A DNA stretch of 64,000 nt from a virus, in IMG/VR virus record IMGVR_UViG_3300042691_015921; one strand, 5' to 3'. The notes beneath the pieces were generated by a model. The model saw only the letters and a list, made by a program, of their open reading frames with translations. It was not told where the DNA came from and did not search any database. The translations under genes were made by a program, and so were the position numbers. Shown here one piece after another: positions 3,701 through 64,000 of this stretch. Position 1 is the stretch's first letter. Every line of letters starts with the position of its first letter.

Positions 3701-4512
3701 CTATTACTAATCATAGATGGCTTTCGGATACCGTAAGCGGACTACAAAGTTTGAACTTTGAAGAGAATGGAAGATTTTGTTTTCCATTTGTCAAATTTGA
3801 ATCCTCTAGAGTGTTTTTGCCTGTGCCGAGGCCCGGCTCATCTGGTAATGCAATGGGCGATTTATCAATGAATGGACTGAATGTATTTCTTGGGACTAGC
3901 ATAGCTAATAAAAACGGTTTTCCAAATCAGCCCGGAAGTATTGCACCGTCCGGTAAATATAGGCAACATCAAACCCTTGAAGACCAACTTGTTTCTGTAT
4001 TAAAACCTTTTCAGGCTTGCGTAGTACCAAAAAGTTTTAATTATGCTCAGATATCTACTAGATATGTCTACGGCCCATGGATGACAAGTCTATCATATAT
4101 ACCATTCAGGGGCAAGGTTGAGTATGAACAAGATGAATCTTTAATTCCTGAAAACTTTTTAATCCCAACAAATTTTGGTCAATTTGGCGGTTTTACATTA
4201 AACCAAACAAGTGGATTCACTGGAATGAATTTGGCGGCACAAGGTCGTGCAAATGCTATTGATGATTTTGCTTTATTTGCAATAGAAGAAGGAAGTATAA
4301 CAATTCCCGGAATTCCTTCAATTAAAAGAATTGGTGATAGTTTCTATGGGATACAACAAGTCACTGATATTAAGATTAATATCAATAATGACGGAATGGA
4401 AACAACATACAATTTTAAGACAATTTCTCCAAGATTTGGCAAAAATACTAGAGCTTTAGAACAGAAATTGACTAAAATATCTGATGACATTAAAAAATTA
4501 AAACTTAGGTAA
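706..4512 (+). CDS. Large putative virion (tail/baseplate-type) protein, 1268 aa
   Basis: Long ORF with SD (AAGGA) upstream; beta-rich composition; C-terminal segment resembles the ends of tail/baseplate hub proteins. Confidence 0.5.
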   Translation: MPTNIQPFGTSTDSPTYNVAPIKLFGCTVIDFSVSADWSAQGGSLSCRLIESDSDGDRLTIPVLGSPVLFEMKDTNGNILFQYIGIVDSFSRSASNSKTYSANFSSPLKILEATSVILDGYAGLGSSQEGSYLLNGIGSQDFGHNNPSIIVDNSPGVYHWWNVANLINVYGILENDDPVYRVPTLYDSILTTPKQYGDFGFSGKSKDGIPLIKLMWALHMGINHLPPIDQTQRQKTHGGNLLFGRHNYNIYDDQEAIPYYYHFDAIHFYNQIVDKLGPEYRIAGQHKTLSEIISHLCDEANLEFYTYIDLYTDTTIGDPTLQDQILYPDVINQPAVCNWIAGIGQTMVPTKFSSGGNYGGTIRVKTIDKNSFFNQYRPFSNIAYNLIGLEVPDLKNSVISSYNGIHPGRRPINDTSYGTSTSNYYSDPLDSSGVGLWRGSNIEQPRSDWGFTNAGTISVASGGSFPVQATGVSGLPVLFDPNKLNDIKIKSSDISIKLNDFTTMKVITGGYQTRLVSSPRTMLRHYWGDILLPTGSDPRTTSDTATDSLGLDETSVRKIPVVTQLLDPRDVDDCILIDMKSDFGPITITGVMYQGIYAASLLEIRCAMSSIDSWKAFVEGYKYQKIRNITKAFFPECTSPSGQTNGVPVTKDELEKGMATINASGGLGYAGASNLLGLGNMFSLHQTHNSLVSTNYNRSGDPNYLPTASGSGIFGLGINISCAAAEVAVRQHVLPTFHEKIKEIGDKHYGKSWYAPVPYAKAIQDLDGDNLVGNFKRSWELNEAAYVEPSNYYSRQIPQNNLFIKDGKVSPFLNYDHNFLASNTGQYDTNYAQAITNLVGQAQKICNFSEYNLDKLCITRYSSPSGVDSSGNILYGASGLDIVHAAPDNIENGYAFLPIGYDGYYNRAKLPFSDIITGLRKKYVDSKNSGSNLIPSGEGQFGTSYYYTMFQIPWTRFVPTDSDLYANTTTNEQPQIPGTSGQIPDNSGYFESGVIGIPSITNHRWLSDTVSGLQSLNFEENGRFCFPFVKFESSRVFLPVPRPGSSGNAMGDLSMNGLNVFLGTSIANKNGFPNQPGSIAPSGKYRQHQTLEDQLVSVLKPFQACVVPKSFNYAQISTRYVYGPWMTSLSYIPFRGKVEYEQDESLIPENFLIPTNFGQFGGFTLNQTSGFTGMNLAAQGRANAIDDFALFAIEEGSITIPGIPSIKRIGDSFYGIQQVTDIKININNDGMETTYNFKTISPRFGKNTRALEQKLTKISDDIKKLKLR

Positions 4513-6279: not shown

Positions 6280-9200
6280 ATGGCCTTTATAACTAAGACG
6301 GACGACACCAAGTGTTATAGTTGTGGAAAACAATGCATTAATGTAGAGTTTTGTTCTGCTGGTGCTAGTTATGATTCTGACGATATTGGAAGTCAAGGGA
6401 TTTCTATATCTAGAAATATCCGCGTTTCTATAGTAGCTAATCCTGAATTCTGGGGATTTAGTGGAGTTTTAATTTCTGGATGGGCAACATATTCTAATGG
6501 ATATTATGATTTTTTTGATGGACACGATGAAGATCATAAAGCAGAAAAAACATGTAGTAGCATCACATATGGGCCGTTCTTAAATGAACAAAGACCAGAC
6601 GTTTTTTATAGATCAGTCTATGATCCAGATACAGGAATATCAACCCATTATGGATCAGATGGGTCATTAGAAGGAAGTGGATTGGGCAGGGGTGGTGCAG
6701 AAGTCTATCTTATTAATAGACGTTCTGGTTTAGTTGCAGGCGTCAGTTCAGACAATGCATCTTGTGCAACAGCAAATCCTACCCAGGTATTCAAGCAATT
6801 TCCAGAAAATTACGGTTGGGGAAATAAGATCAACTTCAACACTAAGATATATAAAAATCTTAGCGGTGCATGGAGAATGGTTAGTCTAGAAAACTGTCAT
6901 CCACAAGGAAATCTATATAAGCCGGCTGGATATCTAATTGATTGTTCTGGAAATGAAAAACAAAATGTTTCTGTCGAGTATAAAAGATTCCAAAACTATG
7001 AACCTTCTAGGACAAGAGCGTCTGGAAATTCATCTTATTATAACTATATTTCTGGTTGTCATCCAGATGGTTCTGTAGCTGGAAAATATGCCGGATATTT
7101 TGATGGAAGCGGTAGTATATTTAGGTCTACATCCTCTTCATCTTTTATCCAGGCAAAATTAGCATACGGTTCACTTTCAAATCAAATTGCCGCAAGCGGT
7201 CTTAGAAATGGAATGACTATTGGAATAAAGAATGATGTAAGTGGAATATTCAACAATGTATATACAATCTTTGATGTTACGCATACACCCACTTATACAT
7301 TAGTAAAATTTGTTGGAACAACTAGCAATAATACACAACCAAATTCGGCAATACCAACTGGCGATTTTAGTTTGAATATTGGACAAAGTGGGCATTGGGT
7401 AGCATTTAATACATATGATCCACAGACTTGTTGTGGTCTTAGTGCCTATGGAATTTCTGATAAGGACAAACAGTTTTGTGACGGATTGAATTATCATACA
7501 GACTTTAGAAGAATTTTTAATCATCCAAAAAATATATTACAATCTAATAGAGATCCACAGTGGAGATATAACTACGGATTATATGATAATATCACGGCAT
7601 TGTCTGGCATTTTAGCAGAATCTGGTCGTCGTGATTTTAGATACCCATCTATAGATAATAGCGGACTTCCAATAATTGTGAGCGGTAGTCCAGTATTTGA
7701 AAAACAGTTATCATATTATGGAGATTTCTTTATTGAAGACAAATATGATTCTGCCAAAAGATTTGAACAAGCTATAAATAGAGGAAAGGGTAGAAATGCT
7801 ACATGTTATAGTAAATATGCTACATTAGAAATATTTCCTGATTGTGTCACACAATATGATTTTTACAATAAATGCGTCACAGAAACACAAACGTATGTAA
7901 CAAATAGACTACCTAGACTGGCTTTCGTTTATCGTGGATGTAATTTCAATGACGACTGCTCATTTGATGCGAGTGGATTACCTCTTGGCGGATGGAAAAA
8001 TCAAGGAAGTGTTCCAACCGGTATAGAAGATTTAAAGAGGCAACTAGCAGGTCAAGAAATACATATGTTCCTTAATTTAGGAACGGCTTGGGGTGGAAGA
8101 AAACCGCTTAGTCCATGTAGGTGTGACTGTGATTCAGTAATCCCTGGACAATATCCACCAGAACATATTCAAATTCCAAGCCCTATCACTTTTCCATCTT
8201 TTCCAAATTTTGATTTAAATCCAACCGGTTATGGATGTAAAGACGCTAGATATCAATTGAATTATAAGAGAAATGAAACCGGCGGATATATTACCCAGAG
8301 CGGTTTCTGTGATCCTTTACCAACATCTAATTATGCCTGTATGGTAAAACAACCATATGTTACATATGGTTATATTATGAATCTGTGCGGCAAAGAAACT
8401 AAAAATAGAAAAGATGTTATTACAGAAGCATTTTCAAAACTCCATCAGGACAAAACATATACAAATGCAAACCCAACAGGCAACATAACAGAACCAATGT
8501 ATTGGAATATTGTCGCACCAAACCCAACACCGTTTGGCGGTAGTGGAGGCGTCTGGTCAAGCGGTAGTAGTGCCAGAGGAGACTCTGGCGGTTCATTTTC
8601 TCAAATTGGTGGAAGCGGATATGGGTTCTGGGGACTTGCCGACTCAAATAAACAGGTGGTTGCACCATATTTTTGTACAAAACAAAGTTCATACACATGT
8701 TGTACAAACTCTGGATCTTATCTTGACTATAATACAACCGGCACATTGACTAATATTTTAGGAACTAGTAATGGCTGGCCTACCTCTAAGGTTCCTTTTC
8801 TAATTGAAATAGAAGTAGACGATAGTTGTGTTGGATGTGCATCTTCTAGTATGAAAGCGGAAACATTAAATCTAGAAATAAACGGCTTAAATTCTGAGTT
8901 TATATGGCAGCAGCTTTCTACAAGATATGGACATAATTACTGCAAATATGGAGCGGCTAGCGTTTTTGGAAAAGCAAAGACTGAGCCCTCCTTTACGTGT
9001 GTAAGTGGATTTAATCTATCAGTATGTGGCAATGATTCACTTAGAGCAACTTATGGAGACTATTATACTGGAAATACATGCTCATGCATAAATGGGTTTA
9101 ACGTTACATTACATCCTGTAGTAGCATCCGGTTCAAGCGGCGTAATAATTGGATGGACCAGTAATCAGCTTGGTGGTGGTGCTGGAATGGTAGAATTGAC

Positions 9201-12200
9201 TGGCTGTAATGACTTTGCGAGTGCATATCTTGATGCTGATTATTTTAGGGCAGAAGGTGGAGGATATAGAGTATTTGCTCAATTTGATCTTGCGTGTCCA
9301 GATCTACATCAATATATAAATGAACCATATTATCCAGATGTATATTATGAAAATAATCCAATATCAGCAATCTGGGGAAATGCTAATTCATGCTCTCATC
9401 ATTATCCGGCAAGAATAGGAGAAAATGGAGACTTAGATTTACAAACGACTTTATATTTAGTGGCTGAACAGAATGTGGATATATTTAAAAAATTAACAAG
9501 TCGAGGGCTAAGATATAAGAATTTTTCACAATGTTTAACATTAGATGATTTTTCTTCTGTAGATAATCCATTTGGTATTTGCCCTGGTGAAAAAGTATAT
9601 ACATACGGTTGTTCTCTAGGTGCCTTCTTCTATGGATGTAATTATTCTGGAGGTTATCCCGGAAGTTATCCAGAATGTAATGGAAATACACCATGTAATA
9701 CCTGTCCAACTGGAACCGGGAGTGGAACAGTAGTATGTTCATGCGGAAGTGCTATTGGGTATGAAGGTATTTTTCCAAGAAGACTACCGGCTAATTATCA
9801 ACTAAACGAATGTGCCTGTGAATGTAAAGACCCAGCATTGATCGCTATTTATAATCTTACATCCACCGGACTAGTTCTAGTGTCTGGTGCTAGTGCTGCG
9901 TGTGCAAGTGTTTATTGGGCTGGAACCGATAAGATATCACCAACATTAATAAATTGCCCAACTCCTCAACCATTTATTGGAATTAAATTAGGAACAAGTA
10001 AATCTACTGACTGGTACGATTGGAGTCATGGTGTAAACTCTGTCGTAAGTGGCGTGAGGTATGAACTAAATAAACCATTCTTAAATACGGAAGAATGTAA
10101 TACATTAAGAAGACTTCCATATACTGCTGGAAATAATGCTACTAATATTGATTGTACGATAGCATCAGGCAAAGCAAATTATTGCAATGCCAATTCAACA
10201 GTAAATACAAAAACATGTGGAAATCCAGTTTATAGTACAGGATCATTTCCATCAGATGCAATAAGAGTTCGTAAAAAGAAGTGCCATCCAGAAGTGGCAA
10301 TTGTTAATAAAATTGAATGTCTAGGATCTGGTGGATACAAACTATATGTCTCAAGAGAATATCATGAACATGATAGAACTTGGTATGAAGTTGAAAGCAG
10401 TTCATGTAAAGTAGTAAATGCGGGTGCATATGTTTATAATGACGGCACAACTTCTGGCTGTCAATTAATAAACTATTCTATTCTTGCAGACTCTGTTACA
10501 CCAGCCTATACTTCACCCTGTAGTACGCATCCTTCTTCTGGATCATTTGTTACTCAAGACTATAAGTATCAGAAGTCTTCTTTTCCATCTGGTTCACATA
10601 TATGGAATTATTTTAATCTATTTTATTCTAGTGGATTTTTGCCAACTGTAGCAAATGGATATTTAATCCCGTCCGTTTCTAGTGGTTTTGCATGTACTGG
10701 AACTCCAGCGACAATTGTTAACTCTGGAACAGTTTTTGGAAGTGGATCATATTTGAGTCCATCGGGATTTAATGGCATATTTGCGACAAATCTTAAACAT
10801 AGTTGTGTACAAGACTCAGCAGTATGCGGCGGGGATTTGTGGTGCAATAAGATGTTTTTTCCGAGACATGAATATAAGGCTGGAACAAGAATTGCACCTT
10901 TTGGATCTCCTTCTATATGTACCGCGAATAATGAATTTAAATCTGCTTTTGAATTAGATGGTTATGACGAAAATGGTCAAACAATATCTGGCGGAAAAGA
11001 TATATTAAATGAACAAAAGTCTAGGTTCTTTGACTGGTGTAATGATTCTATAATACAATTAGCAAAACAAGATATAGGAATAGATAGTACAGAAATTATA
11101 GTTGATGATTATTTACCACTTATTGGAGTTATACACCCAGGATGGAAATTTACATCAGATATTAAAAGCTGTACAGTTGGAGGAACTGGATGCCAAGATA
11201 TACTTCCAGTTCATAGTGATATAAGTATCGCTGGCGGCATACATGAGCCAAAAACTTATACAACCCATGGATTTGACTCAATGGGTTATTATCTAGATAA
11301 ATCTGGCATTTCATATAATGGTATTGGAAATCTAGTAGGGGCAAGTGGGGCAAACCAATGCCTGTTCAATCCGTTCAAAATATTAATTGATGTTGAATGT
11401 TCACTAAATAGAATTGCTAGAAAAAACTTTCCATCAGATTCACCAACTTATTTACATGGTGTTCAGACTTGGCCCGTAGAATCATGTTTGGGCATGGTAG
11501 GAGAGCCAGGGTGTGGATGTTCAGATACTAAATGTCAATTTGCATCTAGTGTTAAACAAGGAGAATGCACTGCATTCCAGGGCACTTCTTACATTGGTAC
11601 AATTGCAAGTGGAACATATACGTATTGTCCAAGCGGAATAGAATGTAGTGGTTGTGGACTTAGTAACTGTGAGGAAAGAAATGGAATATTTATCCAGATA
11701 GGAAGTCCTGTTGGTAAGTTTTTTGATCCTAATATATTTACATCTATATCACCCATAGGGGAATTAGCAATAAATTCAACAGTTGTTTGTTATTGTCAAT
11801 CCGGTAGTGGAACTACGTCTGGCGTATACACAAACGTTGCTGGGCCTTTAACTGGATCATGGGCATTGAATACATGTGATGGAAGTGTATATCAATTATT
11901 ACCAAGCGGAACAAGATATGTAAGAAAATGGACATGTCAAAATAATCAATATATAAATAAAGCACCAAGCTTAGGATATACCTCATTATGTGATTGCGAA
12001 TCAGATATCAATGAGGGATTATGTGATGCAAAATATAGATGTGCAGACTTTTCGACATGTGCATGTCAAGAAGTTGGTCAATCAGGTCAAAGTGTTCCAA
12101 ATATAACTACCATTGGTGCAGGAGGAAGCGGAACATGGTGGTCATCAGACTGCGGATGCGAGGCATATCCAAAAGCTATGGGTGCCTGTGGACAAGACTC

Positions 12201-12228
12201 ATTAATTGAGTGGCAAATAACAGAGTGA
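6280..12228 (+). CDS. Giant cysteine-rich protein, 1982 aa (possible tail fibre/adhesin)
   Basis: Long ORF with SD (AGGA); many CxC, CC and CxxC clusters; last gene of the structural run. Confidence 0.5.
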   Translation: MAFITKTDDTKCYSCGKQCINVEFCSAGASYDSDDIGSQGISISRNIRVSIVANPEFWGFSGVLISGWATYSNGYYDFFDGHDEDHKAEKTCSSITYGPFLNEQRPDVFYRSVYDPDTGISTHYGSDGSLEGSGLGRGGAEVYLINRRSGLVAGVSSDNASCATANPTQVFKQFPENYGWGNKINFNTKIYKNLSGAWRMVSLENCHPQGNLYKPAGYLIDCSGNEKQNVSVEYKRFQNYEPSRTRASGNSSYYNYISGCHPDGSVAGKYAGYFDGSGSIFRSTSSSSFIQAKLAYGSLSNQIAASGLRNGMTIGIKNDVSGIFNNVYTIFDVTHTPTYTLVKFVGTTSNNTQPNSAIPTGDFSLNIGQSGHWVAFNTYDPQTCCGLSAYGISDKDKQFCDGLNYHTDFRRIFNHPKNILQSNRDPQWRYNYGLYDNITALSGILAESGRRDFRYPSIDNSGLPIIVSGSPVFEKQLSYYGDFFIEDKYDSAKRFEQAINRGKGRNATCYSKYATLEIFPDCVTQYDFYNKCVTETQTYVTNRLPRLAFVYRGCNFNDDCSFDASGLPLGGWKNQGSVPTGIEDLKRQLAGQEIHMFLNLGTAWGGRKPLSPCRCDCDSVIPGQYPPEHIQIPSPITFPSFPNFDLNPTGYGCKDARYQLNYKRNETGGYITQSGFCDPLPTSNYACMVKQPYVTYGYIMNLCGKETKNRKDVITEAFSKLHQDKTYTNANPTGNITEPMYWNIVAPNPTPFGGSGGVWSSGSSARGDSGGSFSQIGGSGYGFWGLADSNKQVVAPYFCTKQSSYTCCTNSGSYLDYNTTGTLTNILGTSNGWPTSKVPFLIEIEVDDSCVGCASSSMKAETLNLEINGLNSEFIWQQLSTRYGHNYCKYGAASVFGKAKTEPSFTCVSGFNLSVCGNDSLRATYGDYYTGNTCSCINGFNVTLHPVVASGSSGVIIGWTSNQLGGGAGMVELTGCNDFASAYLDADYFRAEGGGYRVFAQFDLACPDLHQYINEPYYPDVYYENNPISAIWGNANSCSHHYPARIGENGDLDLQTTLYLVAEQNVDIFKKLTSRGLRYKNFSQCLTLDDFSSVDNPFGICPGEKVYTYGCSLGAFFYGCNYSGGYPGSYPECNGNTPCNTCPTGTGSGTVVCSCGSAIGYEGIFPRRLPANYQLNECACECKDPALIAIYNLTSTGLVLVSGASAACASVYWAGTDKISPTLINCPTPQPFIGIKLGTSKSTDWYDWSHGVNSVVSGVRYELNKPFLNTEECNTLRRLPYTAGNNATNIDCTIASGKANYCNANSTVNTKTCGNPVYSTGSFPSDAIRVRKKKCHPEVAIVNKIECLGSGGYKLYVSREYHEHDRTWYEVESSSCKVVNAGAYVYNDGTTSGCQLINYSILADSVTPAYTSPCSTHPSSGSFVTQDYKYQKSSFPSGSHIWNYFNLFYSSGFLPTVANGYLIPSVSSGFACTGTPATIVNSGTVFGSGSYLSPSGFNGIFATNLKHSCVQDSAVCGGDLWCNKMFFPRHEYKAGTRIAPFGSPSICTANNEFKSAFELDGYDENGQTISGGKDILNEQKSRFFDWCNDSIIQLAKQDIGIDSTEIIVDDYLPLIGVIHPGWKFTSDIKSCTVGGTGCQDILPVHSDISIAGGIHEPKTYTTHGFDSMGYYLDKSGISYNGIGNLVGASGANQCLFNPFKILIDVECSLNRIARKNFPSDSPTYLHGVQTWPVESCLGMVGEPGCGCSDTKCQFASSVKQGECTAFQGTSYIGTIASGTYTYCPSGIECSGCGLSNCEERNGIFIQIGSPVGKFFDPNIFTSISPIGELAINSTVVCYCQSGSGTTSGVYTNVAGPLTGSWALNTCDGSVYQLLPSGTRYVRKWTCQNNQYINKAPSLGYTSLCDCESDINEGLCDAKYRCADFSTCACQEVGQSGQSVPNITTIGAGGSGTWWSSDCGCEAYPKAMGACGQDSLIEWQITE

Positions 12229-20473: not shown

Positions 20474-22024
20474 CTATATCATGTAAATTTTATCAATAAT
20501 AAATGAATTTCTCTGCTTGTCCTTGATTTCACCAGAGATTAATACAGTTGCCTGCTCGTATATTATATCTTTGTTTTGCTCGTATATATCTGGAAAAACC
20601 ACAATATTTTCAAGTTCACCAGAGTCATCTTCTATTGATAAGAAAGCCATCAAATCACCATTCTTGGTCTTAAACTCCTTTGCCCTTTTAATAACTGCCG
20701 CAATTATGGAATGACCAGTTTTGCCATCGGCTATTTCTTTGCATGTAGTATCGGCATGTCCGACCTCCGCACATGCATTTAACTCGGAATGGTTTATAGC
20801 ATATCCAAGAAGTTTCTCCTCAATCTTAGCATAAACGGCAGAATTGTCAAGTAGACTCCTGCCTGGATTATTAATTCTTACTAATATATTTTCTACCTTC
20901 TCTAATCTCGACTGAGTTGAAATTATGCCGCCATTCTTTTTTAAGCCCAGGTTGATAAATTTCTGTAGAGTTTCTGAGATAGTATTTGATACTAGATCAG
21001 ACTTTGCAATGAAATCTATTTCTTTGTCTGTTAAGTCTAGATAACAATGAAACTCATGAAGCATTTCGCTTCTTGTCTTTCCAAGACCAGAAAAGGCACC
21101 AACGCTAATAAGGTTTTCTATCGCTCTCTTATTAATATTTGTTAGAACCTTGGTCAATAGAACAGTCCATGTTCTTTCATTTGACGGTATATCATCTAGA
21201 TATTTTTTAAGTTGCTCAAGATGTGCAGCACCAACATTTTTGACATTACAGATTCCGAAGTAGATTGCACCATTATGCCAAGAAAAATTATCTTCAAGAA
21301 TATTTATAGTTGGTCCACAAACTTTGATATCCTCTGATTTAGCTGCCATAATAAGTTGTCTAGTTTCCATATCTGGATCTATTTTTTCATCGGCATTTCT
21401 TAACCAGTTTTTAAAGAATTTTGGAGTATAATGATATTTGATCCATGCAGACCAGTATGCCATTTTAGCATATGCTACAGCATGAGATTTATTAAATGAA
21501 TATCTTGCTGATTTTTCAATCATATCAAAGATTTCTATAGCCTTATCTTCATCAATATTATTATTTTTACAGCCTTCTATAAATTTTACGCGAACCTCTT
21601 TCATGAGGTCTGCCTTTTTCTTGCCAATAGCCTTACGAAGATCGTCCGCTTGCTTTAGATTAAATCCAGCCATTTTGACTGAGATTTCCATTGCCTGTTC
21701 CTGATATACAATAACTCCATATGTTTCTTTTAGTAGGTCATCAATTAAAGGATGAAGGCTGGGAATATCTTCTTTGCCAAACTTACGATCAACAAAGTGC
21801 TGAGTCATTGATTTACCATCTACTATCGCTTTTAACGTTCCGGGCCTAACGATGCTAATGAGTGCAGAGAGTTCTGTTATATTCTTTGGCTTTGACTTTT
21901 TAGACCATGTTTTACCAAGGTAGCTTTCTATCTGAAAGCAACCTTTGACGCGACCTTCGCCTATCATGTTCCATACTTCGGCGTCGTCTTCTCGGATTTT
22001 AGTGATATCAATTTTGGAATGCAT
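20474..22024 (-). CDS. dnaE: DNA polymerase III alpha subunit, C-terminal half (fingers, HhH, OB)
   Basis: GCFQIES, ETYGVIVYQEQ, ADDLRKAIGKK, YSFNKSHAVAY, MAFLSIEDDSG. Confidence 0.95.
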   Translation of the reverse strand: MHSKIDITKIREDDAEVWNMIGEGRVKGCFQIESYLGKTWSKKSKPKNITELSALISIVRPGTLKAIVDGKSMTQHFVDRKFGKEDIPSLHPLIDDLLKETYGVIVYQEQAMEISVKMAGFNLKQADDLRKAIGKKKADLMKEVRVKFIEGCKNNNIDEDKAIEIFDMIEKSARYSFNKSHAVAYAKMAYWSAWIKYHYTPKFFKNWLRNADEKIDPDMETRQLIMAAKSEDIKVCGPTINILEDNFSWHNGAIYFGICNVKNVGAAHLEQLKKYLDDIPSNERTWTVLLTKVLTNINKRAIENLISVGAFSGLGKTRSEMLHEFHCYLDLTDKEIDFIAKSDLVSNTISETLQKFINLGLKKNGGIISTQSRLEKVENILVRINNPGRSLLDNSAVYAKIEEKLLGYAINHSELNACAEVGHADTTCKEIADGKTGHSIIAAVIKRAKEFKTKNGDLMAFLSIEDDSGELENIVVFPDIYEQNKDIIYEQATVLISGEIKDKQRNSFIIDKIYMI

Positions 22025-22694
22025 TTTTAAAGTTCTTTCTAGATGCTGTGGTCCTAAGCATTTTCATAGTTCTACAAAATAATTCAGCAGTCATTATAAC
22101 GTCAGACATAGCATCGTGTGCCTTGCCTTTAGAATAATTCATATATCCACGAATCAGATTGTCGGCAGACAGAGAGTTAACGTCTTTATTATTTTCAAAT
22201 AGTGCAAACATAAAATCAAGTAGGTCTATACTATGTATCCTATTGAACAGATCTTGCTCTCCACGCTTACTATCAACCGGTCCAAATTTGTATGGGGCTT
22301 GAGTGCAGAGGCGATTGACTATAACAGAGTCAAAGTTTTTAATGTTATATCCTACGGATATTGGGGCACTCCAATTACTACCTTTAAAATTATGCTGATT
22401 GACATAATCAGTAAAGTTTTTCCAAACAGATTCTACACTTGGTGCATCACGTAATATTTCTTCTGTTTTACCATGCACCGCAACTGCACCATCTTCTAGT
22501 GGATCAATACCAAGTTTTTGACATTTATCTTTATCGAATACAGGCTTAATCAATGACTGAAATTCTGATCCGGGCTTTATCTCTAATTTTCTTCCATGAA
22601 TAACAACGGCAGCTATTTGCACCGGCTGTGTTGTATATGGGTTTGCACTAGTCGTCTCAAAGTCATAGCAAATAAAATCACGATAGTTCATCAT
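22008..22694 (-). CDS. dnaQ: DEDDh 3'-5' exonuclease (DnaQ/epsilon-like)
   Basis: ExoI DFETT, ExoII GYNIKNFD, ExoIII HDAMSD. Confidence 0.9.
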   Translation of the reverse strand: MMNYRDFICYDFETTSANPYTTQPVQIAAVVIHGRKLEIKPGSEFQSLIKPVFDKDKCQKLGIDPLEDGAVAVHGKTEEILRDAPSVESVWKNFTDYVNQHNFKGSNWSAPISVGYNIKNFDSVIVNRLCTQAPYKFGPVDSKRGEQDLFNRIHSIDLLDFMFALFENNKDVNSLSADNLIRGYMNYSKGKAHDAMSDVIMTAELFCRTMKMLRTTASRKNFKNAFQN

Positions 22695-24528
22695 TAACCT
22701 CTTTTACTGTTTCTGCAATTTTTTTAAGTAAATTTACACCTAAAATATCAAATTTAACACATCCAATAGCCTCTAGATCACCCATTTCCATTCCAGCAAT
22801 TTGCTCTGAATTTCTAGAAGATTTAACCATGGGGCATATCTTTTCTAGACTGTCTGATGCAATTACTACGCCGGCAGCATGTTTTCCCTGTGTCTTAAAT
22901 ATTCCTTCCATTCGCATAGCCTGTTGAAATATTTTAGCATACTCGCCCTGTAGATTACCGTCATCGTCTAGCCAGCAATAATCAATTAGTGCCTCTCTGT
23001 CATTTTCAAGTGCCCATCTAATAACAGATGGATTATCCATTTCTTCCAACAGGTCAGAAATAGCGGCCTCGTTGGGAATCTTTTCTGTGATTTGATTCAT
23101 CTGATCAAAACTACATGACTCATTTACACGTAGAACTTCTTTAAGAATGGATTTGCCGGCAAGTCTACCAAATGTAAGCATTTGACAAACTCGGGATTCT
23201 CCATACTTATTCTTTAGATATTCAATTACCTCATCCCTATAATCAGGAGGGAAATCTACGTCAATATCTGGAAGAGAGATATGATCTTCTGTATTTCTGC
23301 CGTCATTGTAAAAACGTTCAAAAAGAAGTCCATACTCTATAGGATCAATAAGAGTTATTCCCGTTAGATAACAAACAAGCGATCCACCACCAGAGCCACG
23401 GGCGGGACCAACTAGACAGCCTTTATTTCTAAAGTAATTTACATAATCTTGTACAATTAAGAAGTAGCCAGGAAGTTTAGCCTTGCTAATTACCTCTAAT
23501 TCCTTAAGAACCCTATCTTTATAGATATCATGCTTGTCTTTCGGTATATTTGTAGATATCAATCTTTTCCATCCCTGCCTACACAATTCTTTAAGATATT
23601 CATCTTCTGATAGATTATTAGGTGCATCAAATCTTGGCAGCTTAGGATTAGATAAAATGTTTATGTCTTCTATAAGAAGACTTATATTTAATAGATTTGA
23701 TATTTGCCTATCTGAGTAATTAGTCTTAAGAAAGTCTAGATTCTTAATATAATATTTACTGCTTCTAATAAACTTCAATGCGTCTATATTTTTTGAATCA
23801 GTTATAGACTGATCTAGTTTCTTCATTGTTGTTTTAAGTTTAGTACATAATATAACACGGTGATCAATCGCGTCTATATTTTCTGGATAGTATGATGAAG
23901 TATCAGGTATTGATAGTTCATGATTAGGATCAATTTCATAGATGATATTTTTAATTACATTAGTAATTGGATATGATTCATCATTTGTTGTGTTTACTTC
24001 TAGATAATAATATTTAAATGTTTTACGCATTAATTCAATATGATCCCTAGCAACGGAACCATAGTTCGGCACTAGACAGTCAACTATACTTTCACTATCT
24101 ATTGATTGAAAAATACAATTGTTATCTGGCATCACTGATGAAAATAGCATACTTCCAACATATCCGTCCACACATACAAAATCATCTGGAGATATATTTT
24201 TGAGTAGTTCTTCTATAGAAATTCTAGGAGTATCATGATAGTTTTCTGGATTATTTGAAATAGAAATAACAGAAAGTAACTGATTCCATGCATTGCGATT
24301 CCTACAAAATAAACTGATAGTTGATCCATTTGCCAAAACAATTTCAGTACCAATAATCGGCTTAATATCAGACTTCTTGCAGGCTTGTATAAAGTTTACG
24401 CATCCGCTGATTGTAGTAAGATCGCATATGCCGGCATGAGTATAGCCGGCATTTTTACATGCTTGTACAATCTGTTCTGATCTTGAGATTGACGATAAAA
24501 GAGAATAGTGACTATGATTTCTAAGCAT
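22678..24528 (-). CDS. dnaE: DNA polymerase III alpha subunit, N-terminal half (PHP, palm, thumb)
   Basis: HSHYSLL, GPARGSGGGSLV, LLFERF, PDIDVDF, GKHAAGVVI, KFDILG. Confidence 0.95.
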   Translation of the reverse strand: MLRNHSHYSLLSSISRSEQIVQACKNAGYTHAGICDLTTISGCVNFIQACKKSDIKPIIGTEIVLANGSTISLFCRNRNAWNQLLSVISISNNPENYHDTPRISIEELLKNISPDDFVCVDGYVGSMLFSSVMPDNNCIFQSIDSESIVDCLVPNYGSVARDHIELMRKTFKYYYLEVNTTNDESYPITNVIKNIIYEIDPNHELSIPDTSSYYPENIDAIDHRVILCTKLKTTMKKLDQSITDSKNIDALKFIRSSKYYIKNLDFLKTNYSDRQISNLLNISLLIEDINILSNPKLPRFDAPNNLSEDEYLKELCRQGWKRLISTNIPKDKHDIYKDRVLKELEVISKAKLPGYFLIVQDYVNYFRNKGCLVGPARGSGGGSLVCYLTGITLIDPIEYGLLFERFYNDGRNTEDHISLPDIDVDFPPDYRDEVIEYLKNKYGESRVCQMLTFGRLAGKSILKEVLRVNESCSFDQMNQITEKIPNEAAISDLLEEMDNPSVIRWALENDREALIDYCWLDDDGNLQGEYAKIFQQAMRMEGIFKTQGKHAAGVVIASDSLEKICPMVKSSRNSEQIAGMEMGDLEAIGCVKFDILGVNLLKKIAETVKEVNDELS

Positions 24529-59943: not shown

Positions 59944-60530
59944 AGTTCTTCTTCAAACCATTCTGAAAATACAGATTGATTTAATACCACCCCCGGCTTT
60001 CCGCCCATATAATGTATTGGTTGTATCATATTATTCTTGATAGCATAATCGAAGAAATCTTTCACTGTTACCGGGGTCATTATTCCCCATCTCAGCTTAT
60101 CTTTTATAGATTCGATCTTGGAAATGTGCTTATCTAAGTCATAATCTTTTGGAATCTTTAGATCCAGATTTATCTTTTCTGATGGATAGATGAATAAGAT
60201 AGCGGCTTTTTCCCTAATGTATGCTTTCAGATCGCCAACCTTAAGGGTCAATTTACCATACGTAGGAACCCATTTAATTTCTATTGGCATATCATTGATT
60301 GGGCAGGAATTATATTTAAGATCGACTATATAATCTGCACCAGATGTTTTGCCTTTTTCAACAAATTCACCCGTGTTGTCAACACCATTATTTCTTGGAT
60401 TTTTGACGCTGATTCTTTTACTATTACAATTTTCAATCCACTTAAAAAAGAAATAGTTTTCTAACATAGTAGAAAACTTTATTTGCTGTTTGAAAGTGTC
60501 TATACTCCTATTATCAAAACGGTTAGACAT
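59919..60530 (-). CDS. Hypothetical protein, possible PD-(D/E)XK fold
   Basis: ADY...IEIK motif. Confidence 0.5.
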   Translation of the reverse strand: MSNRFDNRSIDTFKQQIKFSTMLENYFFFKWIENCNSKRISVKNPRNNGVDNTGEFVEKGKTSGADYIVDLKYNSCPINDMPIEIKWVPTYGKLTLKVGDLKAYIREKAAILFIYPSEKINLDLKIPKDYDLDKHISKIESIKDKLRWGIMTPVTVKDFFDYAIKNNMIQPIHYMGGKPGVVLNQSVFSEWFEEELWVNKEGL

Positions 60531-60557
60531 ATTTTTTTCCTAAAGTAAAAATTCAAA

Positions 60558-60826
60558 TTCGGGAACTAGGATTTGAACCTAGACAGAATGATCCACATAC
60601 TACTATAGTTTTCACTACCCTTTATGGTTTGTAGTCTAGACTTTACCTTCACCATGGATTAACTTTAGGTGTCTCCCGTCAAGTCGTTACACCTTCTAAT
60701 TTCTTAGCTTGGCTCGGGATTGGCATTTTACAGCGTTCCCCGAATTTGAGAGATTATACTATTAAAGTTTCCCTTAATGCACTCCAGTTCTTAAAGTCAT
60801 TCGTGCTACCGTTACACCACTCCCGA
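60558..60826 (-). tRNA. tRNA-Gln(UUG) interrupted by a group I intron (exons 60794-60826 and 60558-60595)
   Basis: Joined exons give a U1-A72 acceptor TCGGGAG/TTCCCGA, anticodon arm AATGA-CTTTGGA-TCATT and T arm CTAGG-TTCAAAT-CCTAG. Confidence 0.85.
60596..60793 (-). mobile_element. Group I intron (198 nt, no ORF) in the tRNA-Gln anticodon
   Basis: P (AAATTCGGGGAA), Q (AATCCCGAG), R (GTAACGACT) and S (AAGGTAAAGTC) elements; P1 ACTTTA/TGGAGT with U.G at the splice site; terminal G. Confidence 0.85.
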
Positions 60827-60827
60827 A

Positions 60828-60902
60828 TACGAGAGGGGGGAGTCGAACCCCCAACATTCAGATCCTAAATCTGACGCCTCTGCCAAATTGGGCTACCCTC
60901 GC
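60828..60902 (-). tRNA. tRNA-Leu(UAG) with short variable loop
   Basis: GCGAGGG/CTCTCGT with A73; TCAGA-TTTAGGA-TCTGA; variable loop ATGTT. Confidence 0.85.
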
Positions 60903-60913
60903 ATGATATATAG

Positions 60914-61016
60914 TAGTTAAACAAGTTCTTGTGGGTTCTGTGATTGTGGTAAAGCCACAATTCAGGCTTGCTCACACCTAGCCACAAGATACAGCAAGTC
61001 TCTACTCATTTAACTA
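60914..61016 (-). ncRNA. Candidate structured ncRNA of unknown class
   Basis: 13-bp closing stem with two G.U pairs, nested 8-bp and 7-bp stems, possible pseudoknot CTTGCT/AGCAAG. Confidence 0.5.
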
Positions 61017-61019
61017 TAA

Positions 61020-61092
61020 AGCCGATGAAGGGAATCGAACCCCCGACAGGCGATTTACAAAACCGCTACTCTACCAACTGAGTTACATCGGC
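61020..61092 (-). tRNA. tRNA-Thr(UGU)
   Basis: GCCGATG/CATCGGC; GCGGT-TTTGTAA-ATCGC; canonical D and T arms. Confidence 0.95.
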
Positions 61093-61101
61093 AAATTCTA
61101 A

Positions 61102-61203
61102 GGATGGATGAGTGGAATCGAACCACTTCAAGGGCATTTGTTTGCCTACTTTGCTGTCGCAATTCGGAACTTCCCTCACGCTACCATTCACGCTACATCC
61201 ATC
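61102..61203 (-). ncRNA. tRNA-like RNA with an expanded, branched anticodon domain
   Basis: GATGGATG/CATCCATC acceptor; D loop with GG; T arm AGTGG-TTCGATT-CCACT; about 38 nt in place of the anticodon loop. Confidence 0.6.
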
Positions 61204-61273
61204 ATGCAAGGCTCGCCATCTCTAACGAGCCAAGATCGCTCTATCCACATGGGTAGATACGTCAGCCTCCGAA

Positions 61274-61350
61274 TAGGGGAAGTGGGATTCGAACCCTACG
61301 ATCTCCAGCTTATGAGGCTGGCGAGAACGACCTGACTTCTCTATTCCCCG
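61274..61350 (-). tRNA. tRNA with CAU anticodon (Met, initiator-like)
   Basis: C1:U72 mismatch and A11-U24 as in fMet; CCAGC-CTCATAA-GCTGG lacks the three G-C pairs; bulged T stem. Confidence 0.75.
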
Positions 61351-61363
61351 ATAATTATTATAG

Positions 61364-61434
61364 TCCCAGGTCCGAGAGTCGAACTCGGCGTGAGTACCTT
61401 ATAAGAGTACGTTGCCAACCGGTTTCCACCTGGG
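61364..61434 (-). tRNA. tRNA-Ile(UAU)-like with degenerate D arm
   Basis: CCCAGGT/ACCTGGG with A73; GTACT-CTTATAA-GGTAC; T arm CCGAG-TTCGACT-CTCGG. Confidence 0.7.
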
Positions 61435-61450
61435 AAGTTAGTTCTTAACT

Positions 61451-61478
61451 ATTATACTCCACGTATCGTCATTGTCAA
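61451..61478 (-). promoter_or_regulatory. Consensus sigma70 promoter driving the tRNA array
   Basis: TTGACA-N16-TATAAT just upstream of the first tRNA. Confidence 0.8.
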
Positions 61479-61498
61479 GAACTGGTCTTTAATTTTTC

Positions 61499-61687
61499 TC
61501 AATCGTGATTAAAAAAACATAAGTTTCCAAAATCTTCTATTGGCAAAGACTTAGGTTCAACCTTTGGTCTAGGCTTAGGTGCGTTCTCCCCAAATAAAGC
61601 TTCTGCTTCCTCTGGAGTCATAACGTAACCGTCTCTCTGTGCCTCACGAACCGCGTCTAGCATACGTTTTACACTTTCTTTAGTCAT
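61499..61687 (-). CDS. Hypothetical protein
   Basis: Coupled to upstream ORF. Confidence 0.5.
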   Translation of the reverse strand: MTKESVKRMLDAVREAQRDGYVMTPEEAEALFGENAPKPRPKVEPKSLPIEDFGNLCFFNHD

Positions 61688-62006
61688 TAAATAATCCCTT
61701 TAGATATTCCCTAGGAGGAAGCGGACGCCAACCCTTGTATTCACGTTCAGCATCATACGGTTGCCAGTATGGAGCATCACAGGCATCCACGTTACCAAAT
61801 CCATCATCACGGTAAAAAGCGTGCGGACACAACCCTATGTATACTTCCACACCATTTTTCTTCTTGCCGGGAACGCCTCTTTCTTCATATTTATACGTTC
61901 CGGTCCACAATCCGATATTCTCTCCGAAGTAATAAACTCGTTGACCTTCTTTGGGAGGATCGGTATGAGAGTTTCGCCAGTCATTCATTATTGATACCTT
62001 TTCCAA
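61680..62006 (-). CDS. Hypothetical protein (DUF551-like W..PP ends)
   Basis: DWRNSHTDPPKEGQRV...WRPLP. Confidence 0.55.
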   Translation of the reverse strand: MEKVSIMNDWRNSHTDPPKEGQRVYYFGENIGLWTGTYKYEERGVPGKKKNGVEVYIGLCPHAFYRDDGFGNVDACDAPYWQPYDAEREYKGWRPLPPREYLKGLFND

Positions 62007-62245
62007 GCTTCCTCAGACGGACCCTCAACAGCCTCGCACAACTCTTCCCACAAACTTTCGACTAGATTTTGGTCACAGTCAACAGCCCTAAAAGGAACGT
62101 CATAGATAGAGTCAAGAAATCTATTAACAAGACTCTTCAAGTCCGCTAGTTCCTTCCGGGAATCATCAACCTCTTGGATTGTCATCACTTTCCTCCTTTT
62201 TTCTGATTCTACCACGCTACGCGAGAATGTCAATATGGGCGGCAC
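61988..62245 (-). CDS. Hypothetical protein; likely start at 62185
   Basis: SD AGGAGG before MTIQEV; promoter inside the annotated 5' extension. Confidence 0.5.
   Translation of the reverse strand: MPPILTFSRSVVESEKRRKVMTIQEVDDSRKELADLKSLVNRFLDSIYDVPFRAVDCDQNLVESLWEELCEAVEGPSEEAWKRYQ
62206..62233 (-). promoter_or_regulatory. Sigma70-type promoter
   Basis: TTGACA-N16-TAGAAT with extended TG. Confidence 0.65.
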
Positions 62246-62433
62246 CTATTCCTACTCCCACTCATCAGTGGTTTGGGAGGCCACATGGGTATGTCTACCT
62301 CTCTGCTGTGCTTTGCCTCGTCATACGGTAAACCGTCGCCCATAAGGTGTATTGGTAGGATTTTGAAAATGGAATCCTAAAAACCATTAGGGCAGTCATC
62401 CGCTTGGATAGCCAAGGTTCAGACCACGATCTT

Positions 62434-62461
62434 ATTCTACCACTGTTTATCGTCCTGTCAA
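62434..62461 (-). promoter_or_regulatory. Sigma70-type promoter
   Basis: TTGACA-N16-TAGAAT with extended TG. Confidence 0.65.
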
Positions 62462-62485
62462 GTCTGTTTCTTTAAACTTTCAAAG

Positions 62486-62557
62486 CTGTGGGAGGTGGTT
62501 CTGCCCCACCATCTTACACTTTAACAGAGTGCCGCATTACTGTTATGCTATCCCACA
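62486..62557 (-). tRNA. tRNA-Asn(GUU) with atypical D and T loops
   Basis: TGTGGGA/TCCCACA with G73; GCACT-CTGTTAA-AGTGT; T loop GGCAGAA. Confidence 0.8.
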
Positions 62558-62568
62558 AAGATATAAAA

Positions 62569-62641
62569 AGCAAGAGAAGGGAATCGAACCCTCAACTTTC
62601 AGTTTGGAAAACTGACACTCTGCCAATTGAGTTACTCTTGC
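62569..62641 (-). tRNA. tRNA-Gly(UCC)
   Basis: GCAAGAG/CTCTTGC with U73; TCAGT-TTTCCAA-ACTGA. Confidence 0.95.
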
Positions 62642-62680
62642 AAATCCTATGAAAAGATTTCTCTAATCATAGGAAAAATA

Positions 62681-62893
62681 TCAACGAACCACAGAACGAA
62701 CGCGAGAACCAACCCTACGCAGTCCATTGCGGGTTACTTCTACCGTCTTCTTTGTGACCTGAACTGGAACACGAACTACTTCCTTAGTAGCGGTAACTAC
62801 ACGGTTGCGAAGTCCACAAGTTCCATTAGCACAATCTCCAGCATTTACAGAGCCACAAGCAAGTGCAAATGCTACAACAAGAATATATCTCAT
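62681..62893 (-). CDS. Small secreted basic protein
   Basis: SD AGGAGG; signal peptide; CANGTC; Arg/Val-rich tail. Confidence 0.7.
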   Translation of the reverse strand: MRYILVVAFALACGSVNAGDCANGTCGLRNRVVTATKEVVRVPVQVTKKTVEVTRNGLRRVGSRVRSVVR

Positions 62894-62927
62894 AGAATCC
62901 TCCTTTAAAAAGTAAAGTTAAAACAAA

Positions 62928-63088
62928 TGCCCGTTTGGATATCAAGGGCGGGCAACCCCCCGTCACTGTCAAGCAGCGAGTGCGTAGGTTTCTACGTCAT
63001 TTAAAATTTGTCTATTTTTAAACTGGCCTTTAGACAAACCAGTACATGCAATTATCTTTTCCATAATCAGTCGATACTTTTCACCCCC
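62928..63088 (-). ncRNA. ssrA: Two-piece tmRNA, coding piece (5' acceptor strand, pk1, tag ORF (A)DVETYALAA at 62969-62998)
   Basis: GGGGGTGAAAAGTATCGAC 5' end; pseudoknot ACTGG/CCAGT plus TTTGTCTA/TAGACAAA; TAAAT|GAC resume context; YALAA-stop. Confidence 0.9.
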
Positions 63089-63626
63089 GATAAATTACTA
63101 TAGCCTTTGCAAATTTTATAACATCTTCATCTGAAAATTTATTTCTGGCAAAATTAAACATAACAGATACAAATCTAACATTTCCAATTATATATCCTTT
63201 ATTATTATCAATTCTGTCTAAACTAGCAGAGTTAATATTTAATGGATTTAATTTGTTATCTTGATCCTTATATGTTCTTAAATCTAAAGCAAAACCGGTA
63301 AATGGACAAGTACCATTCTGTGATTCCCAAACATCTTTTAAATGTTCTAAAGTCAAAGAATATTCTTTCTTTTTTCTTCTTTTTGCGTCTCTCAGAAACG
63401 GTTTAAATACACTATATTCATCTTGTTTTTTTGGATTATTCAAATTCCAAACGGGATAGTCCGTTCTATTACTTAATATTCTTTCAGTAGTTTCTGGACT
63501 TTTGCCATAACAAGACAAACAGCAGTAGAATTTGTCCTTTCCCGCTTTTACTTTTCTATTATACTCGCCTTTTTCTTTTTCAAATTCTTTGTTACAAGTA
63601 GCACAAACTAATTTTATTTTTGACAT
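63081..63626 (-). CDS. HNH-like putative homing endonuclease with N-terminal zinc finger, inside the tmRNA intervening segment
   Basis: CATC...CCLSC; CPFTG; SLDRIDNNKGY..GNV....N; SD AGGAG. Confidence 0.75.
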   Translation of the reverse strand: MSKIKLVCATCNKEFEKEKGEYNRKVKAGKDKFYCCLSCYGKSPETTERILSNRTDYPVWNLNNPKKQDEYSVFKPFLRDAKRRKKKEYSLTLEHLKDVWESQNGTCPFTGFALDLRTYKDQDNKLNPLNINSASLDRIDNNKGYIIGNVRFVSVMFNFARNKFSDEDVIKFAKAIVIYRG

Positions 63627-63690
63627 TTTATCTCCTATTTAGGTTATATATTTTATTATACACCAAAAATGATGGAGATGATCAAAAAAA

Positions 63691-63755
63691 GTGGAGGTGG
63701 AGGCATTGCAGCCTCGTCCTGTGTTATTTCCGAAATAATCTCTACATGTTTAGGC
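63691..63755 (-). ncRNA. ssrA: Two-piece tmRNA, acceptor piece
   Basis: CTAAACATGTAG...CAGGAC-GAGGC-TGCAAT-GCCTC-CACCTCCA; pairs with the coding piece to give G3.U70 and A73. Confidence 0.85.
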
Positions 63756-63991
63756 TAAGTTTGAGTCAATAGCCATGACTGTACCTTTTCATTTACTGAT
63801 TTCCGTAATAGATCAATAATTCCAGAAAATTTAAGACTTGTACGATCTGGATTATATTTATCATGATATACTATAGCGAGAAGAATTTGTTCAATTTCCC
63901 ATTCAAGGTCACTCATATTATACTCCCACCAGGGTCTTATCAGTAATTTCTTCCGTCTCATTATTATAGTGGACAAAGAACGAATAACCAA
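63755..63991 (-). CDS. Hypothetical protein; likely start at 63916
   Basis: SD GGGAG before MSDLEW. Confidence 0.4.
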   Translation of the reverse strand: MVIRSLSTIIMRRKKLLIRPWWEYNMSDLEWEIEQILLAIVYHDKYNPDRTSLKFSGIIDLLRKSVNEKVQSWLLTQT

Positions 63992-64000
63992 TCTTTTTAA

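Follow-up and report, generated by a model that had tools for sequence, protein, structure and literature searches.

An endonuclease-family gene in the intervening segment of a circularly permuted tmRNA gene on a phage-like contig

Transfer-messenger RNA (tmRNA) genes have been sorted into three gene forms by a 2025 database paper, which places LAGLIDADG endonuclease genes only in T-loop group I introns and describes, as a unique feature, a tRNA-Ala gene lying in the intervening sequence of a permuted tmRNA (PMC11915505). Two-piece tmRNAs of phages have also been published, namely that of the OM43 phage Melnitz and 53 genes called by ARAGORN in phage databases (PMC9004378). In phage T4, SegB is a free-standing GIY-YIG homing endonuclease encoded in the tRNA gene cluster (PMC2988022, which cites PMC2330249). 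Here, we describe a locus in a 64,000-nucleotide (nt) stretch of DNA, IMG/VR virus record IMGVR_UViG_3300042691_015921 (the whole stretch is referred to below as the window), for which comparison of sequences confirms a genuine circularly permuted, i.e. two-piece, tmRNA gene on a phage-like contig, with an open reading frame (ORF) of an endonuclease family in its intervening segment. An earlier note on this DNA, written from the letters alone, had proposed this arrangement, and matches to models of both tmRNA domains and to PHROG endonuclease families bear it out. The note also knew of no description of it; full-text literature searches (tmRNA with homing endonuclease, HNH, intervening or permuted) returned none of a nuclease gene in the spacer, the two-piece phage tmRNA itself being published (PMC9004378). 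What appears to be new is the nuclease-family gene in the tmRNA spacer; tmRNA genes in permuted form and free-standing homing endonuclease genes of phages were known before.

The window gene resembles the two-piece tmRNAs of phages and of the betaproteobacterial lineage (RF01850, RF04321) in that the acceptor piece comes first and the coding piece second, and it shares with them G3.U70, A73, helix 2, the first pseudoknot (PK1), an ALAA-type tag and a reduced number of pseudoknots. It differs from them in its spacer, which is 602 nt long, protein-coding and equipped with its own promoter-like box and ribosome-binding site (RBS) hairpin, in that the last 8 nt of the ORF belong to the mature RNA, and in that standard tools miss the gene. 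Like the T-loop group I introns that carry LAGLIDADG genes (PMC11915505), it has a homing-type gene inside a tmRNA gene, which here too would be removed at the RNA level; unlike in those introns, there is no ribozyme, the site lies after A73, and removal would use RNase P and 3’ processing. A self-splicing intron or an intein housing the ORF was considered and rejected: Rfam found no intron family, group I or group II, between 62400 and 64000 at E up to 10, and what borders the ORF on either side are the ends of the tmRNA. As in the permuted tmRNA bearing a tRNA-Ala gene (PMC11915505), a foreign gene sits in the discarded spacer, the difference being that the cargo in the window is a protein-coding nuclease-family gene that recurs in at least eight alleles. 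Finally, as with T4 SegB and the seg/mob genes, a free-standing endonuclease gene lies among structural RNA parts cut from a common precursor and is sporadic in related phages; unlike with SegB, the flanks are the halves of one RNA that would pair across the insert, the ORF overlaps the mature RNA, and the protein belongs to another family, being no GIY-YIG enzyme and lacking a Pfam HNH match.

On the minus strand, on which all features of the locus lie, the order is tmRNA 3’ domain, 65-nt leader, 181-residue ORF and tmRNA 5’ domain, the two tmRNA halves being on the same strand and separated by a gap of 602 nt. The acceptor piece, or 3’ domain (63692-63751), contains the 3’ strands of helix 2, ACATGT (63749-63744), ATTATTT (63739-63733) and ATAA..CAG (63727-63719). 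These are followed by the T arm (63715-63700), consisting of a GAGGC/GCCTC stem (63715-63711 and 63704-63700) and a 6-nt UGCAAU loop, by the acceptor 3’ strand CACCTCC (63699-63693), and by the discriminator A73 (63692), after which the sequence reads CTT; CCA is not encoded. The endonuclease ORF (63626-63081) has GGAGAT as its Shine-Dalgarno (SD) sequence. The coding piece, or 5’ domain (62926-63088), starts with the acceptor 5’ strand GGGGGTG (63088-63082), followed by TCGAC and the 5’ strands of helix 2. It goes on with PK1 (63043-63007; pairings ACTGG/CCAGT and TTTGTCT/AGACAAA), a resume codon GAC (62998-62996) placed by the Rfam beta_tmRNA alignment, the tag DVETYALAA with its stop (62998-62969; TGA at 62971-62969) and a 3’ pseudoknot or hairpin, TGCCCG/CGGGCA (62954-62928). 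A T run, TTTGTTTT (62920-62927), follows this hairpin and is the likely transcript end of the coding piece; a simple terminator scan called no terminator at either RNA end, the T run included. At the sequence level, the pieces are similar to the E. coli tmRNA motifs CAUGUAG...GGAC and GCAUG-PK1. The sequence features listed in the earlier note were all found at the positions claimed for them.

Two covariance models, R1 for the 3’ domain and R2 for the 5’ domain, were built from relatives only (17-18 sequences), the window itself being excluded. When the 64-kb window was searched, R1 matched 63692-63751 over its full length with 60.3 bits (E 3.3e-14), the runner-up being a tRNA T arm with 15.6 bits, and R2 matched 62926-63088, again over its full length, with 113.5 bits (E 1.5e-29). 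Each model found one site, i.e. there is no second copy of either domain in the 64 kb. At the level of motifs, CACCTCCA and the 5’ motif each occur once in the window, on the same strand and 603 nt apart.

Relatives were collected by a protein-guided scan of IMG/VR with the window ORF, which gave 75 loci, and by a DNA scan for the conserved leader, which added more. In all, 19 distinct ORF-bearing alleles were obtained, in two layouts. Type A alleles (n = 8: the window, L026, L027, L028, L029, L030, L190 and L204) are permuted, with the 3’ domain, the ORF and then a 5’ domain that overlaps the end of the ORF; there is no 5’ domain upstream, where L029 has a tRNA and L026 coding sequence. Type B alleles (n = 11: L031, L033, L034, L037, L038, L039, L117, L133, L141, L150 and L186) carry a tmRNA gene of the ordinary one-piece kind, 315-355 nt long, whose acceptor end is directly followed by an ORF of the same family; two of these, L031 and L033, are RF00023 tmRNAs by Rfam, with 108 and 106 bits. 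Model searches found one 3’ and one 5’ domain per locus, the 3’ domain lying about 600 nt upstream in the seven other permuted loci and the order being reversed in the one-piece loci. All IMG/VR homologues with a protein identity of 41% or more directly follow a tmRNA acceptor end, one-piece or permuted, and linkage to the tmRNA 3’ end holds in 19/19 alleles, from 41% to 99% identity. Homologues at 33% identity or less have no adjoining tmRNA. The same was seen for homologues in crAss-like gut phages, which are annotated “endonuclease” and are 36-44% identical (L104:1471-2052, NC_055890.1, cr56_1; L105:1474-2076): they have no flanking tmRNA, and no tRNA or tmRNA was called in the 3.5-kb stretch. 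The earlier note had the endonuclease use the excised spacer as a neutral site. The ORF does lie in the spacer of permuted genes; the idea has to be modified in that the insertion site is, by this comparison, defined by the tmRNA 3’ end and not by the spacer as such, because the same ORF family is found directly 3’ of 11 one-piece tmRNAs.

The set of alleles was then used to examine the base pairing of the two halves, which the earlier note had drawn as an alanine-type acceptor stem and helix 2 and which covaries in homologues. The acceptor stem is paired at 7/7 positions in 19/19 alleles and comes in three compensatory forms, GGGGGTG/CACCTCC, GGGGGCG/CGCCTCC (permuted L190 included) and GGGGATG/CATCTCC, with G3.U70 and A73 invariant throughout. 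For helix 2d, seven covarying forms were observed, e.g. GCATGT/ACATGT, GCAATC/GATTGT, GCAAGT/ACTTGT, GCATCC/GGATGT and GCACCG/CGGTGT, and the T stem is paired at 5/5 positions in every allele even though the sequences differ. A formal covariation count was made on a MAFFT alignment of the eight permuted alleles, ORF included: 79.6% of cells are paired versus 69.2% in shuffles (0/500 reach the observed value), 30 pairs are altered on both sides versus 16.4 expected, and slid-partner controls are 41-48% paired. In the numbering of this count, helices 1, 2 and 4, which bear on helix 2 of the tmRNA, are 85-96% paired with 3-4 double-sided changes each, and helix 6, which bears on the acceptor stem, is 100% paired. 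For stem 1 of PK1, the paired share is 90%, and 4 pairs covary. Stem 2 of PK1 and the hairpin of the leader score poorly in this count, which reflects misalignment by MAFFT; the hairpin is covered by per-sequence folds. Together, these comparisons show that the acceptor stem and helix 2 of the two domains can pair across the 602-nt gap. The sole exception is L027 (2869-3697), where helix 2d is mismatched (4/6 pairs): its acceptor piece has a helix-2d strand of the L204/L317 type while its coding piece is of the L026/L028 type. This allele looks like a recombinant, or chimera, across the ORF, and the mismatch suggests recombination or co-conversion across the endonuclease gene.

The earlier note had predicted relatives with a short spacer and no ORF, and these were found. 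A scan for CACCTCCA, then 2-32 nt, then GGGGGTGA returned at least 120 phage loci, of which 112 were usable two-piece genes; phage two-piece tmRNA alleles that lack the ORF and have a spacer of 2-32 nt thus number 112 or more in IMG/VR, and most phage tmRNA genes are without the ORF. Two such alleles, L288 (17-nt spacer) and L317 (5-nt spacer), belong to the same tmRNA lineage as the type A alleles. In both, the model searches placed the two domains at these same distances of 17 and 5 nt. Their coding pieces are 75-83% identical to those of L026, L204 and L030, with which they share the tag ADESLALAA, and over their upstream flanks L317 and the ORF-bearing L204 are 73% identical. Rfam assigned L288 (1985-2228) and L317 (364-598) to tmRNA_permuted (RF04321; gathering score 47) with 96 and 94 bits, and they scored 67-74 bits on RF01850, whereas none of the ORF-bearing permuted alleles was called by the Rfam permuted models. 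Presence and absence at one site within one tmRNA lineage is, at the level of sequence, the pattern expected of a mobile endonuclease gene.

These alleles also bear on how the arrangement arose. In a tree of the ORF rooted by the crAss-phage homologues, the permuted alleles and one-piece L031 form one clade (97/97) and everything else is non-permuted. Two histories are compatible with this: the cassette may have jumped from a one-piece gene to the corresponding position of a two-piece gene that already existed, or the gene may have become permuted around a cassette already in place. In the latter case, the permutation would have arisen around an ORF already resident 3’ of a one-piece tmRNA, e.g. 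by a tandem duplication tmRNA-ORF-tmRNA with loss of the outer halves, so that the long spacer would be primary and the short spacers of L288 and L317 secondary deletions; this differs from invasion of a permuted gene in history and not in present function. A single permuted origin is compatible with the 97/97 clade and with the non-permuted state of the other branches and of the crAss outgroup, and the two layouts have the leader in common, including its hairpin and TATAAT box. We nevertheless regard this course of events as unlikely, given the 112 or more ORF-less two-piece phage alleles with spacers of 2-32 nt and the position of L288 and L317 among the ORF-bearing alleles. The tmRNA tree, in which most supports are below 70, gives no order for the events in which the ORF was gained or lost. 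An ORF that invaded a gene already permuted fits equally well, because short-spacer alleles are abundant, L288 and L317 are interspersed and the tmRNA tree is weak. Exchange between cassette and flanks may be another element of this history: the L030 and L190 ORFs are mutually closest (79% identical), and yet no two coding pieces are less similar than theirs (72%), a discordance that, together with the L027 chimera, points to such exchange.

We next turn to the leader between the acceptor piece and the ORF. Minimum-free-energy folds of the segment between A73 and the start codon (63691-63618 in the window) pair a CATCTCCA-like element with the SD region in 19/19 alleles. In the window, this second element (63680-63673; core ATCTCC, 63674-63679) provides the 5’ arm of the hairpin and the SD sequence GGAGAT (63630-63635) the 3’ arm, with an outer stem in which TTTTGAT (63687-63681) pairs with GTCAAAA (63624-63618) at the ORF start. 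The arms change in a compensatory manner, from ATCTCC/GGAGAT in the window to CCATCTCC/GGAGATGG in L026, CTGGGTC/GACCCAG in L186, GGCC-TTTC/GAAAGGCC in L031 and TCCACC/GGTGGA in L034. The earlier note had read the second element as a degenerate copy of the acceptor 3’ strand, such as an insertion might leave. We rejected an insertion scar: the element is predicted to form the arm of an anti-RBS hairpin in 19/19 alleles, with compensatory changes in L186, L031 and L034, and it cannot mark the permutation because it is present in one-piece alleles too. Its resemblance to the acceptor strand is probably due to both being complementary to a G-rich sequence (GGAGG and GGGGGTG, respectively). A possible alternative is an I-TevI-style operator that mimics the homing site; a role in the RNA is favoured because L186 keeps the pairing while having lost most of the resemblance to the acceptor strand.

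The loop of this hairpin contains a TATAAT-type box, TGTGTATAAT/TGGTGTATAAT, that is conserved in type A and type B alleles. In the window it is a -10-like box (63655-63665) with no -35 element, because of which a scan for the sigma-70 consensus does not call it. Boxes resembling TKGTRTATAAT occur 30 times in the window versus 15.8 expected, i.e. at about twofold, with 0/100 shuffles reaching 30, and one of them (61451-61461, minus strand) lies just upstream of the tRNA cluster. This may be the phage’s -10-only promoter type, the box in the hairpin loop being a putative ORF-specific promoter. Hairpins that hide the RBS and have a late or middle promoter inside them are known from I-TevI, I-TevII, I-TevIII and segB of T4 and from mobE of Aeh1, where the RBS is hidden in read-through transcripts and transcripts that start inside the hairpin are translated (PMC2988022). 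The window shares with segB, mobE and I-TevI to I-TevIII the RBS-sequestering hairpin with an internal promoter, both predicted here from sequence. A TATAATAAGATAT box nearly identical to that of the leader hairpin was also seen upstream of the acceptor piece of L026 (L026:2860-2875), so that one promoter type may drive the pre-tmRNA and the endonuclease gene alike.

The ORF product matches phrog_3322 (endonuclease, 3.8e-23), phrog_1035 (endonuclease VII, 4.5e-15) and phrog_3118 (HNH, 1.3e-9). The family alignment has thirty invariant residues. Four of them, C8, C11, C35 and C39, form an N-terminal CxxC...CxxxC zinc finger, and the C-terminal part has an invariant block DRID..GY..N.R..N..N (C107, D137-R138-I139-D140, G144-Y145, N149, R151, N158 and N162). 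A sequence profile search of the PDB gave a MYM/eL24-type zinc finger for the N terminus and a weak match (E 0.13) between residues 106-169 and PacI, a beta-beta-alpha-metal nuclease. The nearest ESM Atlas neighbours are viral “hypothetical” clusters with hundreds of members, the nearest named ones being HNH and Endonuclease_7 at a sub-threshold score of 0.88. We therefore regard the product as a protein of an endonuclease family, probably of the His-Me-finger type. Of the zinc-finger/HNH-like assignment in the earlier note, the endonuclease family and the zinc-finger cysteines stood, while a Pfam match and a significant fold match did not materialise.

Standard tools do not report the tmRNA. 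ARAGORN, which the earlier note had suggested running with and without the spacer, found nothing either way: it called no tmRNA in the native region, in constructs that kept 0-80 nt of spacer or with the halves in standard order. Its silence is uninformative because it also missed the obvious two-piece gene of L001. At gathering scores, Rfam called only tRNAs in the window and no tmRNA; at relaxed thresholds, a local beta_tmRNA (RF01850) match of 22.6 bits covered 62928-63020, i.e. the tag and the 3’ hairpin only. The 600-nt insert is the likely reason why the gathering scores of RF04321 and RF01850 were not reached. An exact scan of IMG/VR with the window’s T-arm/acceptor 18-mer gave only chance matches inside protein genes.

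Taken together, we hold it to be probable that the locus is a functional-looking permuted phage ssrA gene with a free-standing gene of the homing-endonuclease type in its intervening segment. Several observations weigh against this reading. Firstly, on the RNA side, the T loop of the window has 6 nt (UGCAAU) in place of the canonical 7-nt UUCGAAU, and ARAGORN rejects even a spliced window construct. Secondly, on the protein side, Pfam has no match in any of 12 family members; the invariant block has no evident canonical HNH-motif histidine; the AlphaFold model has a pLDDT (predicted local distance difference test score) of 70, which falls below 50 at residues 144-151 within the conserved DRID..GY..N block; Foldseek against the PDB returned nothing at E 0.001 or better; and VIA-align wide gave nothing significant (best Z 3.2; PacI Z 2.6). 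Thirdly, linkage to tmRNA that persists down to 41% protein identity in 19/19 alleles could point to a domesticated function of the ORF and away from pure selfishness.

The RNA-side points, along with the lack of an encoded CCA and the failure to reach ARAGORN and Rfam gathering thresholds, could be accounted for if a mobile insertion had split the tmRNA gene and put it out of action, so that the gene would now be decaying and its two-piece structure would be a functionless relic. We consider this very improbable: compensatory changes keep the acceptor stem, helix 2, the T stem and PK1 paired in eight permuted alleles that have diverged to 72-91% identity, and the tag frame and the ALAA-type end are kept in all eight. 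Odd T loops recur in relatives, which have UGCAAGU, UGCAAUU, 6-nt UUCGAU and canonical UUCGACU, the 6-nt or UGCAA-type loops being found in L029, L204, L034 and L186. Moreover, an insertion into a one-piece gene would not put the 3’ domain upstream of the 5’ domain.

The persistent linkage is what one would expect if the ORF had been domesticated, i.e. if it were a nuclease or nucleic-acid-binding partner acting on host ssrA, on the tmRNA genes of rival phages or in tmRNA maturation, and were kept beside the tmRNA gene for co-regulation. The thirty invariant residues, which indicate purifying selection, agree with such a role, as does the fact that distant (33% identity or less) and crAss-phage homologues are not beside tmRNA. 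Against it stand the absence of the ORF from most phage tmRNA genes and its presence and absence inside one tmRNA lineage, the RBS-hiding hairpin with an internal promoter, which is a signature of T4 homing endonuclease genes, and a nuclease/zinc-finger composition that matches free-standing homing endonucleases; domestication therefore seems to us quite unlikely.

A homing endonuclease gene in this position would work as follows. The endonuclease would recognise ORF-less tmRNA genes near the conserved T-arm/acceptor 3’ end and cut them, and repair would copy the ORF in; in a permuted gene, the landing site would be the discarded spacer. A precursor spanning both pieces would fold with the ORF enclosed by the acceptor stem and helix 2, all these helices being nested in the permuted order. 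RNase P would then cut 5’ of G1, and 3’ trimming and CCA addition would take place after A73, releasing the leader and the ORF. The insert would be harmless without a ribozyme or intein because the spacer would be removed by RNase P and 3’ processing anyway. In the read-through precursor, the ATCTCC/GGAGAT hairpin would hide the RBS, as in T4, while transcription from the TATAAT box within the hairpin would yield messages that lack the 5’ arm, are translatable and serve as the source of the endonuclease.

The overlap of the ORF with the coding piece adds a further possible layer. In the window, nt 1-8 of the mature coding piece of the tmRNA are shared with the end of the ORF, its last two codons and the TGA stop (63083-63081). 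The endonuclease stop codon lies inside the mature tmRNA in 8/8 permuted alleles; it is the TGA at nt 6-8 of GGGGGTGA in 6/8 and lies further in for L190 and L030. Processing at G1 would remove the stop codon, so that one transcript could give a complete ORF or a mature tmRNA 5’ end, and not both. Non-stop mRNA is the natural substrate of trans-translation. We therefore put forward, tentatively and as a doubtful proposition, that the RNase P cut at G1 turns the endonuclease message into a non-stop mRNA and that the element is self-limiting via trans-translation: tmRNA maturation would cut off the endonuclease message and tag its protein for degradation, and full-length endonuclease would come from unprocessed, internally started transcripts only. 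The overlap would then be a specific link between tmRNA maturation and endonuclease control.

Besides intron ribozymes and inteins, the locus would represent a third means by which a selfish nuclease gene can be housed harmlessly in an RNA gene of an essential type: the host’s tRNA-processing enzymes would discard the gene. It also exposes a blind spot of annotation for tmRNA genes with long intervening segments: ARAGORN and the permuted models of Rfam find ORF-less alleles and not the ORF-bearing ones, so that phage tmRNA genes are under-counted. With the cassette beside one-piece as well as two-piece tmRNAs, it offers a tractable system for the origin of permuted RNA genes, and it bears on the shuffling of tmRNA halves driven by endonucleases, as in the chimeric L027.

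The rest of the window is phage-like, with genes for ribonucleotide reductase, a family-B DNA polymerase, a DnaB-like helicase, a primase and a UvsX-like recombinase and a cluster of tRNA genes. Megablast of window positions 60000-64000 against cultured phages gave no match, and two very large ORFs on the plus strand (706-4512 and 6280-12228; 1268 and 1982 residues) had no PHROG match at 1e-5. On the minus strand (20474-24528), the gene for the family-B DNA polymerase is fragmented: 24528-22678 corresponds to positions 47-616 of phrog_405 and 22024-20474 to positions 619-1072. Between the two fragments and overlapping both is a 228-residue ORF (22694-22008) that matches phrog_192, “DNA polymerase exonuclease subunit”, at 3e-25; a frameshift, an insertion or a gene split in two could each give this arrangement. 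A tRNA on the minus strand at 62486-62557, scored by Rfam at 49.3 bits and missed by ARAGORN, has a non-canonical T loop, GGCAGAA, which recalls the unusual UGCAAU loop in the T arm of the tmRNA.

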